Source: Acidimicrobiia bacterium (lineage in GTDB: Bacteria > Actinomycetota > Acidimicrobiia > Spongiisociales > ZC4RG35). From it: a DNA stretch of 64,000 nt. The position numbers and the translations under genes are program-made. Numbering within the stretch: position 1 is the first letter of the stretch; each line of letters opens with the position of its first letter. The notes beneath the pieces were generated by a model. The model saw only the letters and a list, made by a program, of their open reading frames with translations, ran no database searches and was not told the origin of the DNA. This document shows positions 765 to 14,188 of this stretch, in pieces. Where the stretch lies: assembly GCA_965203555.1 (NCBI GenBank), contig CBDBCY010000004.1, forward strand, positions 3,040,001-3,104,000. The letters are read 5' to 3'.

Positions 765-971
765 GCATTGGTTTGTCATCCCAGACTCCTTGAATCCATC
801 GGAGACATCCCACCCGTCGAAAAGAGAGCCAACCGCTACTGTAAACTACCACCACAGTCGGAAAACCCCTTTAGGTGAAACGTCTCGCGACAGAACACGG
901 GCCGGTTCTCTGAGGGTGGCCTTTTATTAGAGTCTCGGATCTGCCCTTCCTTGGTTAGCGGTATTGTGGGT

Positions 972-1530
972 TCACTGAAAGCCGAGTTGAGGCGACTCTG
1001 TGTATGGTTCCGAAACGGTGGCGCTGATGAGACTATCCCATTGCTCACGGGTGGTTTTCTTTTCGTAGGTGAAAAATTGGGAACACTCTTGCAGTTCCGC
1101 CGAAGCCAGATGGATGGCGTCGGCGGATCGTACTCCTCGGAGTCCTTTACTGCGAGCCCGTCGTATGATCGAACGGGCCTGCAGTGCAGCTCTCTGAGAG
1201 AAGTCGATAACTGATATCGGTGATGCCACGGAGGCATGCGATGACGGTGTTTGGGATTTCATGGCTCTGAGAGAAGTCGATAACTGATATCGGTGATGCC
1301 GGTGTCCACAGTTGGTCAATTCTCCTTTCACTGGAAGGTGAATCGGTGTCGCCTGTTGCTATGTATGCAACTTCAGTGATCGACAAAACGGAAGTGAATA
1401 GCCCGACCCTGTCGTTTCGGGCATCGTCTAGGACCGATTGCACTACGTCCGCGCGGTGTTCCTCATCGCTCACGTAAGCAAGCAGGACATTGGCATCGGC
1501 GTAAACTCTGGGACGTCTAACGGGCGGCAT
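972..1530 (-). pseudogene. PIN-domain (VapC-like) ribonuclease, frameshifted by a 73-bp insertion
   Basis: The N-half (VYADANVLL..SITEV) and C-half (VRSADAIHLASA..FFTYE) lie in different frames. Both frames contain ASPISVIDFSQ. Removing 73 bp gives a 161-aa ORF. Confidence 0.85.
1192..1300. repeat. Exact 36-bp direct repeat pair (1192-1227, 1265-1300) separated by a 37-bp unique spacer
   Basis: CTCTGAGAGAAGTCGATAACTGATATCGGTGATGCC occurs twice; the spacer is ACGGAGGCATGCGATGACGGTGTTTGGGATTTCATGG. Confidence 0.95.
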
Positions 1531-2299
1531 CCCTGATCCGTCTGACTGCCTGTTCCGCAGGCTCTCCGATGTGAAACGCCCCGCGCGCCTGCCGGAAACC
1601 CAATGGATCACCCTCGTCTATGGTGTCCACTTGCGTGATGTCCCGGATCGAGATCGGCTGTCCGGTGGAGGCCTGGCGGGTGATGGTGCCGGTTACGTCG
1701 GCGACGCGCCCCCAGACATCGCGCATGGTCTCCTCAAGGCCAGGATCGGGATGGCACCGAACAGACTTGTCGCTGGCGAGTTCATAGAGAATGAAGCGCA
1801 GACCCCTGCGGTGGGAGAGCGTCTCTACCCGTCCCCGTACAGTGCCGCGAGAGGTTGTGTTTTTTGCCTGCCGTTCGGCAGTTGCAGACCAGGTGAAGGC
1901 CGTAAAGGCCACCTGCTCACCGGCCGCTTCCAGAACGATCCCGTTCTTCTCGTCGGCGACCTCTGCCAGTTCACGAATGCGGCCCACAATCGCACGATCC
2001 GAATGGGTATTGCCGCCTGCAACCCGCAAGGCCACTTGTAGAAGTTCTTCGGTCATGGCCGGGATGGCTTGTTCGGCCTGCCGGTTGAGGGGCGTCGCGC
2101 GGGCGGTCACCGCCGCGCTACCGTGTTCGAGCCCGGCCAGCACCCATCGCACCCCGGCGTCATGACTCTCGTCGAGAGCCTGAAGCACCCTGGTGAACCG
2201 GGCACAGACCTCTGACAGCTTCCCGATGGTCACTTCGCCGTCGAGTCGGAACCCGACAATGCCTTTGGAAATTTCTTTCGTGGTGCTGCAAGGGTTCAT
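1517..2299 (-). CDS. Hypothetical protein overlapping the PIN gene start (putative antitoxin/partner)
   Basis: 260-aa ORF whose 3' end overlaps the PIN ATG; beta-rich C-terminal region (GTVRGRVETL..ADVTGTI). Confidence 0.7.
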   Translation of the reverse strand: MNPCSTTKEISKGIVGFRLDGEVTIGKLSEVCARFTRVLQALDESHDAGVRWVLAGLEHGSAAVTARATPLNRQAEQAIPAMTEELLQVALRVAGGNTHSDRAIVGRIRELAEVADEKNGIVLEAAGEQVAFTAFTWSATAERQAKNTTSRGTVRGRVETLSHRRGLRFILYELASDKSVRCHPDPGLEETMRDVWGRVADVTGTITRQASTGQPISIRDITQVDTIDEGDPLGFRQARGAFHIGEPAEQAVRRIRDAAR

Positions 2300-2387
2300 T
2301 GGTTTCGCCTCTGCCTAGGGAGATCGGCTATGTTGACGATGGTAGCCACCAAGTATTCACTCACTGCAAGGGCTTGGAGTGGTCCCG

Positions 2388-2495
2388 GAGAGGCGCATTT
2401 CCACGGACGACAGTCCCATCCCTATTTGGGTTATCTCCACCGACGAGGAGTCGTTCATAGCCCGTGACACGGCCCGACTGGTACTTCGGGCTAGG
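2388..2495 (+). pseudogene. Diverged duplicate of the ackA 3' end (fragment)
   Basis: Translates ERRISTDDSPIPIWVISTDEESFIARDTARLV, matching 128-225; there is no upstream ackA body. Confidence 0.85.
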
Positions 2496-2539
2496 TGCGA
2501 AGAGGGCACTCTGGGCAGTCGGGGGTTACATTTGCGAAT

Positions 2540-3022
2540 GTGAAACTCTATGTGAAGGCCGCGGTGTTCACCCTGGTGATGCCCGGTGGCGTCGGCGGTC
2601 TGGTTCCGGCCCTGCTGGTGAGAGGCCGGGACGCGGCGGATGGAGCGTTGATGGTGCTGTCGGTGTGCCTGATGGCAATCGGCGCGGCCATGTATGTGCG
2701 TTGCGTATGGGACTTCGCGGCGTTCGGGAAGGGAACGCCTCTTCCCATCGACGCGCCGAAACGGTTGGTTATACGGGGTCTCTACCGGTACTCGAGGAAT
2801 CCGATGTACGTGGGACTGCTGACCCTGATCGCCGGATGGGCCATCCTGTACGGCTCGATCGTGCTGGTGGGGTACGGGGTGTTCCTCTTCGTCTTCTTCT
2901 CGGTGTTCGTGTATTTCTACGAAGAGCGGCACCTGTCCCGGGAGTTCGGCGAGGAATACGAGGCATACCAGGCGCAGGTGGGCCGGTGGCTACCCCGGCT
3001 CTCCCGCAGGGACGTGTCCTGA
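2540..3022 (+). CDS. ICMT/PEMT-family membrane methyltransferase (copy 2)
   Basis: About three-quarters identical to 291-764 by manual comparison; RNPMY motif intact. Confidence 0.88.
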   Translation: MKLYVKAAVFTLVMPGGVGGLVPALLVRGRDAADGALMVLSVCLMAIGAAMYVRCVWDFAAFGKGTPLPIDAPKRLVIRGLYRYSRNPMYVGLLTLIAGWAILYGSIVLVGYGVFLFVFFSVFVYFYEERHLSREFGEEYEAYQAQVGRWLPRLSRRDVS

Positions 3023-3117: not shown

Positions 3118-4869
3118 TTAACTGCCGGAGGGAGACTCTCCGATGTCCGCTGGTAGATAGTGATAGCCCCGGCCCGCTTTCTCTGGGCGGCTTCCCACCA
3201 GCAAACCGCGGTCGGCCAATTCGGTGAGCAGCCTGCCCGCATAAGGAACGCTTAAGCCGGTGAGGTCCGATACTTCGGTGCTGGACGCCCGCCCTCGCCT
3301 GCGTGCCCAATCAAGGATGAGCGCCTCACGCCCATGGGATGTGTGTAGGTTCCGGGAACGGTGGTGCAGTTTCCTACGGATTGGGTTGCCGAGGCGATAC
3401 GCGGGGGAGTGGTCGGCGGGAACCCCCGCAACGCGGGCGATGAACGGCTGGGAATCGGCGGTCACCTGTTGCACGCGTTGCAATGCTGCTCCGGTCTCTG
3501 CCGCCGGGCGCTGCAGGACAGGGGAAGCCGTTTTATCATCAACCCAGCCGTGATCGGTCAGGTGATCCAAGACCAGCAGCAGGTCGATGTCCTGGGATGC
3601 CCCCTCCGGATGCAGAGAGTAAAGGAGGTCGATCATCTCGAGGTCAGGGTCTCCGCCGAACAATCCGATCCTGACATAGGGACCGCCGATCTCTGAGATC
3701 TCGGGCCGGGGCCGGCCTATCGCCAGCATCTCGCTGACGATGAGGTCCATGCCGTAGCCCTGGCGTTCCGCCAGTCTGAGTGAGGCCATGGCTTCAGCCA
3801 GGCTTCGATACCGGGGTACTGCCGGGTGGGTGATGATGTTGGCGGGGGTAATGCCTCCGATGAATCCTCCTGGCGAGGTAATGGTTATCTGGTCTCCGAC
3901 ATGTTCGACAGTGGTGGGATTCGGATTCATCCAGTCGCGGTGGGTGACGCCGTTAACCAGAGCCTCACGGAAGGAACGAGAGGGCACGGCCAGGACTTGT
4001 TGATTGACCAGCCCCCTGAGGATGTGGATGGTGCGGTTTGCGGCTGTAAAAGCGCCTTCCACTCGGTAGATCTGTTCCAGTAATGGTCGAGAAGCCCCCA
4101 ACTCCCGGAAGGTGCTTGCCGCTCCCGGCACTGTACGACGGATGTAGTCCATGCCATCGCCGGGAGTGGCCACAAACAGCAGGGATCCGGCATTGGTGAG
4201 TTTGCCGTCGCCCCCTACGAGGTTCAGACGACGGATAATGTCCTCGCTCGTTGCCTCAGCCAGGCCGGTTGTGTCGGACGAGCCAGTCAAGTAGCGACGG
4301 GCGATGTCCACCGCGACGGGAGACACGTCTTGCAGAGCGTGTCCGGAAGGTCGCGCCGACCAGTCGTAGCCCACTCTCCTACGGTTTTCGGCATACCAGC
4401 TGTTCGGGTCAATTTCCACGCAACTGCGATTGACCCGCCATTTGAGCTTGTTGCCGTAATAGACGGGCTCGATGGCGTAGTCGGTCGTCAACACCAGGAT
4501 GCGGGTTCCATCCAGATCGGCAGTCCGCACGGTAACTGTGAGTTTGCCCTGGGTGAGTTGCCAGATGCGCTCGCGGAGCCACTCTGGATCCAGCAGGGTG
4601 CCGATCCGTTTCCCGTCATCGGAGATCCCTAGGACGATGGCGCCGCCTCCTGGCGTGTTGGCCATGCATGCCATTTCCTCGGCAAGATACTTCGCGGCTT
4701 TCTCGTTCTGGGCTTGGCCTGCGAGCACCTTGCCGTTTCTACGGCGGTCGGGTTCCTCCTTGATATCCACCTGCGTCACTTCGATATCTCGTGGCCGCTC
4801 ACCTCTGTTGAGACGTTGGAGGATTTGCTCAACTTGCTCTTGCAAAGGGTCTGGTCCAAGAAAGGTCAT
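3118..4869 (-). CDS. Schlafen/AlbA_2 + HATPase_c_4 + winged-HTH protein (DUF5635-like)
   Basis: N-terminal VDIKEE..ACMANTPGGGAIVLGISDDG (AlbA_2); REALVNGVTHRDW..ITITSPGGF (HATPase_c_4); C-terminal HTH SSTEVSDLTGLSVPYAGRLL. Confidence 0.85.
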   Translation of the reverse strand: MTFLGPDPLQEQVEQILQRLNRGERPRDIEVTQVDIKEEPDRRRNGKVLAGQAQNEKAAKYLAEEMACMANTPGGGAIVLGISDDGKRIGTLLDPEWLRERIWQLTQGKLTVTVRTADLDGTRILVLTTDYAIEPVYYGNKLKWRVNRSCVEIDPNSWYAENRRRVGYDWSARPSGHALQDVSPVAVDIARRYLTGSSDTTGLAEATSEDIIRRLNLVGGDGKLTNAGSLLFVATPGDGMDYIRRTVPGAASTFRELGASRPLLEQIYRVEGAFTAANRTIHILRGLVNQQVLAVPSRSFREALVNGVTHRDWMNPNPTTVEHVGDQITITSPGGFIGGITPANIITHPAVPRYRSLAEAMASLRLAERQGYGMDLIVSEMLAIGRPRPEISEIGGPYVRIGLFGGDPDLEMIDLLYSLHPEGASQDIDLLLVLDHLTDHGWVDDKTASPVLQRPAAETGAALQRVQQVTADSQPFIARVAGVPADHSPAYRLGNPIRRKLHHRSRNLHTSHGREALILDWARRRGRASSTEVSDLTGLSVPYAGRLLTELADRGLLVGSRPEKAGRGYHYLPADIGESPSGS

Positions 4870-14097: not shown

Positions 14098-14188
14098 GGG
14101 TCCGTGCCGGGTGCGGTCGGGAGTTCCCTCGATGCGCTTTTCCGCCTCGTCGTCGAGCGGGTCCGTGCCGGGTGCGGTCGGGAGTTCC
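14098..14188. repeat. 30-bp exact direct repeat pair with a 31-bp spacer (61-bp period)
   Basis: GGGTCCGTGCCGGGTGCGGTCGGGAGTTCC at 14098-14127 and 14159-14188. Confidence 0.9.

Follow-up and report, generated by a model that had tools for sequence, protein, structure and literature searches.

A PIN-domain gene in the genome analysed here is interrupted by 73 bp of additional DNA that is very probably the product of natural off-target spacer integration by the resident type I-G Cas4/Cas1-Cas2 integrase. The genome (G000; 3.42 Mb, 62% G+C) is assembled in four contigs, and the window examined is the 64,000-nucleotide stretch G000:C4:3040001-3104000, to which all positions given without a contig name refer. 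Near the start of this window two identical 36-mers, with a start-to-start spacing of 73, enclose a 37-bp sequence:

1192-1227, plus strand: duplication copy 1 (pseudo-repeat), 36 bp; PIN coding sequence on the minus strand
1228-1264, plus strand: insert (neo-spacer), 37 bp
1265-1300, plus strand: duplication copy 2, 36 bp; 100% identical to copy 1

An exact 36-bp duplication around a 37-bp unrelated sequence had been claimed in the original prediction, and comparison of the repeats and of the identity of their flanks confirmed it. The edges of the duplication are sharp; the bases preceding the two copies differ, as do the bases following them, and flanking identity is at noise level. Since identity is perfect within 36 bp and drops to noise immediately outside, the length of the duplication is exactly 36. 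This pair is the sole direct-repeat family within window positions 800-1800, and no inverted repeats were found in the same interval.

The duplication and its insert divide a PIN gene on the minus strand, which overlaps the end of an upstream partner gene:

1147-1524, minus strand: PIN gene, N-terminal part; start MPPVR placed by alignment to congener G015
972-1227, minus strand: PIN gene, C-terminal part (Pfam PIN positions 62-112), in another frame and severed from the start codon
1517-2299, minus strand: upstream partner gene, 260 aa; its end overlaps the PIN start, and it is kept beside the PIN gene in G015

The ORF at 1147-1611(-) matches positions 1-74 of the 120-position Pfam PIN profile (E 2.7e-5), and the ORF at 972-1331(-) covers positions 62-112, slightly below the cut-off (23.1 against 23.6 bits; E 1.2e-4). 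Past the insert the PIN frame is shifted by +1 and meets a premature stop at 1147-1149. Deletion in silico of one copy together with the insert (73 bp) gave a 161-aa ORF beginning MPPVR, which bears out the earlier claim that such a deletion restores an intact PIN ORF of this length. Aligned with the intact PIN protein of congener G015, likewise of 161 aa, the restored protein shows no gaps and 112 identical residues, and this intact orthologue matches positions 1-113 of the 120 in the Pfam PIN profile (E 5.2e-14). The added 73 bp displace the PIN frame from about codon 88 (of 161) onwards and separate the C-terminal third of the PIN domain from the start codon. Given the frame shift and this loss, the gene would be knocked out and its protein inactivated.

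The product of the interrupted gene had been labelled a toxin. The PIN domain is there, and on the strength of that domain the protein is a putative toxin of a toxin-antitoxin pair, but no recognisable antitoxin of the VapB type lies beside the gene and the partner belongs to no known antitoxin family. The 260-aa partner had no match in Pfam, NCBIfam or PADLOC, and comparison with solved structures in the PDB gave nothing convincing (one weak match, E 0.19). Its nearest Atlas clusters, at a score of 0.96, comprise proteins of about 260-290 aa from Actinomycetota and Pseudomonadota, all annotated 'hypothetical protein'. It may conceivably be an unusually long antitoxin. Flanking the two-gene module, at 125-765 and 2390-3020, are two direct copies, 82% identical over about 640 bp, of a segment in which the 3' end of a gene for acetate kinase is joined by a PEMT/ICMT-family methyltransferase gene; a gene for a Schlafen/AlbA_2-HATPase_c_4 protein adjoins the region at 3118-4869(-). 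The PIN region looks like a variable island or an insertion hotspot.

The genome has a single match to Cas1, as a Cas4/Cas1 fusion, and this lies inside a complete type I-G operon:

Type I-G operon: Cas3g, E 1.1e-206
Type I-G operon: Cas8g1/Csx17, E 8.9e-146
Type I-G operon: Csb1/Cas7g, E 7.2e-25
Type I-G operon: Csb2, E 2.6e-55
Type I-G operon: Cas4g/Cas1g fusion, 546 aa; NCBIfam cas4g_cas1g, E 2.3e-231, model positions 1-546 of 546
Type I-G operon: Cas2, 99 aa, E 3.4e-11

Judged from these matches, the adaptation module (Cas4g/Cas1g and Cas2) appears intact. Downstream of cas2 lie a leader and the sole array of the genome, with six 36-bp repeats at periods of 71, 73, 73, 73 and 71 and spacers of 35, 37, 37, 37 and 35 bp. 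The check for cas1 and cas2 and for a fitting array geometry, suggested with the original prediction, thus returned one Cas4/Cas1 and one Cas2, repeats of 36 bp and spacers of 35-37 bp. In its geometry the scar equals the resident array (36 + 37 = 73), and the length of the 37-bp insert is shared by three of the five array spacers. The repeat family of this array, with 2-3 mismatches in the hairpin loop, is present in 4 of the 17 genomes of the genus, G000 included. Among 64 spacers of congeners G014 and G003, whose lengths were taken from listed coordinates with one 145-bp period dropped, the mode is again 37 (25 spacers), with two of 35 bp, 14 of 36, 14 of 38, six of 39, two of 40 and one of 50.

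Some further features of the true arrays were recorded. A lone copy of the CRISPR repeat is found at G003:C1:3174743-3174778, about 10 kb from array 1 of that genome, and may be an orphan repeat or the remnant of an array. The oldest spacer of the true array in G000 (L005:1149-1183) matched by blastn a DUF5131-family gene in 12 Gordonia phage records, with 86.8% identity over 38 nt (E 9e-3). The match was too weak to be used as a source for the PAM, and gives a weak hint that spacers of the true array derive from actinophage-like DNA; with the true array as blastn query, no match to plasmids was found. A second PIN-domain ORF (L005:689-1108 (+), equivalent to G000:C4:2456688-2457107; Pfam PIN E 1.5e-6) ends 4 bp short of the trailer-end repeat of the array, and shares no more than 25% identity over 48 aa with the disrupted PIN family, to which it is unrelated.

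Could the agreement with CRISPR geometry be coincidental? A staggered break with 36-nt overhangs might have been filled in and a stray 37-bp fragment captured by end joining, with no part played by CRISPR. Repair of this kind would leave a target duplication around unrelated filler DNA, just as is seen here, and the collections searched yielded no protospacer or PAM that ties the insert to CRISPR adaptation. Two separate coincidences would however be needed, one for the 36 bp that equal the repeat length and another for the 37 bp that equal the modal spacer length, and the 3.4 Mb contain a single event of this sort. We know of no nuclease that leaves 36-nt staggers, and consider a break-repair origin improbable.

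Both filled and empty forms of the site were found in public sequence data, where the stretch is present in three runs (X1, X2 and X3) from two studies. The runs were examined as Logan contigs, which show the presence of a variant but not the absence of minor ones. Two more runs, X4 and X5, contained almost none of the sampled words and count neither way. Run X1 is a coral metagenome from a different study; its 3343-nt contig (depth 12.1) differs from window positions 800-1754 by five substitutions and one 1-base deletion, an identity of about 99%, and runs from position 1191 straight to position 1265, so that exactly 73 bp are missing and 36 bases at the joint are ambiguous. This contig is the empty site in a strain about 99% identical. 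Six genomes among 61 relatives (G000 included) match the region, five of these belonging to the 16 congeners, and congeners G015 and G005 carry a single 36-bp copy without the insert, the gap in the alignment being 73 columns. The recommended look at reads and sister strains thus gave the uninterrupted allele in X1 and the insert junctions in X2 and X3.

The filled allele is represented in X2 by contigs covering 800-1221, 1192-1227, 1198-1294 (97 nt) and 1271-1800, and in X3 by a contig covering 1199-1481. X2 and X3 may be the source data of the assembly itself and are not to be counted as independent strains. A mis-joined repeat or a chimeric read could be suspected on this account, the more so as depth in the two runs is low (3.4-5), but both junctions between repeat and insert are present in the reads of both runs as independently re-assembled by Logan, and the structure is not an assembly artefact. 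The 36-nt repeat unitig of X2 (1192-1227) has a depth of 10 against 3.7-5 in its flanks, about twofold as expected for two copies, and an error would also have had to produce a base-precise structure that matches a biological ruler. We regard an assembly or sequencing artefact as very unlikely.

The empty allele is informative too about slippage, in which half of one copy of a 73-bp tandem duplication would later have diverged. The genome does hold tandem repeats with other periods, but here the 37-mer is unlike the sequence on either side while the 36-bp copies are still 100% identical. Moreover, a strain that differs by about 0.6% in the flanks is without the whole 73 bp, so there has been no time for a slipped copy to diverge, and we find this explanation scarcely credible.

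Off-target integration by the type I-G integrase would bring in DNA from elsewhere, and the properties of the insert are consistent with this. The 37-mer is single in the genome at up to three mismatches, has a G+C content (54%) below that of the genome (62%) and lacks a terminal inverted repeat. A local or self origin was rejected, the best other match in the genome being 13 nt and the best local similarity being equalled by 107 of 500 shuffles; an 11/13 internal match between the insert and the edge of the target was likewise dismissed as being at chance level. Insertion of an IS, MITE or transposon was rejected on the lack of a terminal inverted repeat, the 36-bp duplication and the single-copy insert. 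Target duplications of IS elements and transposons are usually 2-15 bp. The same observations of a single-copy sequence, without terminal inverted repeats and with similarity at the level of shuffles, dispose of two of the readings that had been put forward against the original prediction, namely that the 37-mer is the remnant of a MITE or IS, or the outcome of a local template switch.

No source for the insert was found in the collections searched. Blastn against phages and plasmids returned only chance hits of 17-27 nt (E at least 0.4), with no record at 80% query cover or above, and neither the whole 37-mer nor its 22-nt core had an exact hit in viral, metagenome or genome contigs. Among 201 family genomes, with up to three mismatches allowed, the 37-mer was found in the query genome only. 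Most CRISPR spacers have no known match, and the missing source therefore speaks neither for nor against off-target integration. The insert probably came from a mobile element.

To see how singular the structure is, the whole genome was scanned for exact repeats of at least 30 nt at spacings of 40-130 bp. A 36-37-nt repeat combined with a 34-37-nt gap occurs in the resulting 51 rows only in the five pairs of the true array and at the PIN site. A more permissive scan, accepting 27 of 30 matches at spacings of 55-95, returned 39 hits; ten stand isolated, and of these the PIN site alone has the geometry. When exact copies of 14, 18 and 22 nt were plotted against spacing, no spacing from 69 to 77 bp was over-represented once the array and the PIN site were set aside; copies of at least 18 nt at this spacing comprise the true array (five pairs), the PIN site, three coding repeats at 72, another at 75 and an imperfect tandem duplication of 77 nt. 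On the basis of the genome-wide scan, the 36-bp duplication is not a chance repeat, and a search for further 36 + 37 duplications, as had been advised, found none outside the array except the PIN site itself.

Two other repeats deserve mention. A tandem element with a 73-nt period at G000:C4:2117633-2117815 (L014:434-616) was considered as a second event and rejected, since a similar structure is conserved in congeners G001 and G007 and the element is therefore old and unrelated to the PIN scar. It is an intergenic element, not a CRISPR scar, lies just upstream of recR and has 2.5 copies, with 37-nt unit ends that have inverted termini and 36 nt between them. Within the window, an exact 30-bp direct repeat at 14098-14127 and 14159-14188 (G000:C4:3054098) has a 31-bp gap and a spacing of 61, which is not a CRISPR geometry.

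The same scans bear on the idea of an undescribed insertion process that measures length, adding about 72 nt as an insert plus a compensating duplication, and that does not require CRISPR. The occurrence of this genome in a coral metagenome as well may be cited in its favour. There is, however, no recurrence in the genome at 69-77 bp spacing, and only the PIN site among the 10 isolated hits has the geometry, which is that of the resident array. The insert is, besides, neither a copy of the genome's own DNA nor a hairpin, and such a process might turn out to be Cas1-Cas2 at work. We think a process of this kind decidedly improbable.

If the type I-G integrase wrote the insert, the chosen site may bear some likeness to its normal target. 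The end of the leader is conserved up to the junction with the repeat in G000, in two G003 arrays and in one G014 array (...CGAGCC/CTCCGAGGG...). In the plus orientation the PIN site reads ...AGCT/CTCTGAGAG against ...AGCC/CTCCGAGGG at the true leader-repeat junction, with 10 of 13 matches between -4 and +9 and three mismatches that are all transitions. A junction-anchored ungapped score as high as its 7 is attained at 0.41% of genome positions, which becomes about 0.8% over the two orientations. Some 28,000 genome positions are at least as junction-like as the PIN site, so that its choice is not explained by sequence alone. Over its whole length the pseudo-repeat resembles the true repeat weakly, with 14/36 identity, a value reached by 8.8% of genomic 36-mers, and an unanchored gapped alignment of leader plus repeat with the site was equalled by 7.5% of random sites. 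A motif, TGCGAGCCC, that lies 33-41 nt upstream of the site and matches the leader end was rejected, since its alignment is equalled by the same 7.5% of random sites and it is wrongly placed for the cut sites. Taken together, the comparison weakly suggests that the first strand transfer may have been guided by a junction-like motif.

The pseudo-repeat has none of the folding potential of the true repeat. The latter folds into an 8-bp G+C hairpin (-17.2 kcal/mol, z -2.74), and the former has no hairpin on either strand (-4.2 kcal/mol, z about 0). Window positions 800-2500 yielded no promoter-like site. Because the pseudo-repeat lacks a hairpin and there is no leader or promoter-like site, the scar unit is most likely inert and not a working mini-array. 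The original prediction had allowed for a nascent array, and this holds in so far as the arrangement is formally repeat-spacer-repeat; with no repeat hairpin and no leader, function is unlikely.

We propose that two strand transfers 36 bp apart linked a processed prespacer, 37 bp long and foreign in origin, to the chromosome; these transfers would have taken place between 1191 and 1192 on the top strand and between 1227 and 1228 on the bottom strand. This distance would be the one that the integrase measures on its own 36-bp repeat, the position of the second cut being set by this ruler and not by sequence. Repair of the gaps would then have duplicated the 36 bp, giving the repeat-spacer-repeat arrangement and a net gain of 73 bp, and Cas4/Cas1-Cas2 would have been the acting enzyme. 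The array geometry, the intact adaptation genes, the empty allele, the non-local insert and its uniqueness all support the earlier reading of Cas1-Cas2 as an insertional mutagen. It is likely, in our judgement, that the site presents the first step in the birth of a CRISPR unit de novo, caught as a polymorphism between two wild strains about 99% identical, in which a natively expressed integrase, the type I-G Cas4/Cas1-Cas2, placed a foreign spacer of 37 bp in a chromosomal gene at a mimic of the leader-repeat junction; adaptation would here have been a natural insertional mutagen, and the 36-bp ruler would have worked without the repeat hairpin.

The PIN scar is a further, well-documented natural case of the already known neo-CRISPR off-target integration. 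The type I-E geometry is 28/33, and Nivala and colleagues are said to have noted putative natural cases in Yersinia pestis and Sulfolobus islandicus. As summarised in the citing literature, off-target integration by Escherichia coli type I-E Cas1-Cas2, with duplication of a repeat-length target and a repeat-spacer-repeat product, is established (Nivala, Shipman & Church 2018, Nat Microbiol 3:310), and one text speaks only of 'circumstantial evidence ... in two other species' for natural off-target cases (10.1101/148544). As far as that summary goes, the PIN site shares with the E. coli neo-CRISPR a spacer-length insert, a repeat-length duplication, a chromosomal site outside arrays, the repeat-spacer-repeat product and perhaps a target with some likeness to the leader-repeat junction. 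In contrast to the E. coli events as outlined there, the PIN case is natural, with no over-expression, is associated with a type I-G Cas4/Cas1 fusion and a 36/37-bp geometry, has a pre-integration allele in a wild sister strain, and struck a gene that it would inactivate.

The type I-G integrase family has itself been studied at its normal target. The accounts available describe, for the type I-U/I-G Cas4/1-Cas2 of Geobacter sulfurreducens, mostly 36-bp, TTN-selected spacers, with a leader and one repeat sufficing for integration (PMC6547450), and for that of Methanosarcina barkeri, spacers mostly of about 36 bp (PMC10504553). The enzyme of G000 is of the same family (cas4g_cas1g, E 2.3e-231). 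In those systems, according to the same accounts, prespacers with a TTN PAM enter at the leader-repeat junction of a true repeat, whereas the PIN scar lies in coding DNA without a repeat hairpin. Searches of the literature at the level of titles and abstracts turned up neither a natural type I-G off-target event nor a natural gene knock-out by off-target integration.

There is good laboratory evidence for off-target spacer integration, and the printed natural examples are few and circumstantial. The filled and empty alleles described here, together with an apparently intact integrase and a measured array geometry, provide a concrete pair of substrates with which the target needs of type I-G integration can be tested. 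The same pair of alleles bears on whether the repeat-length ruler of type I-G is independent of sequence. It bears equally on the rate at which host genes are damaged by adaptation, which is both a hidden price of CRISPR immunity and a way in which new arrays have been proposed to arise.
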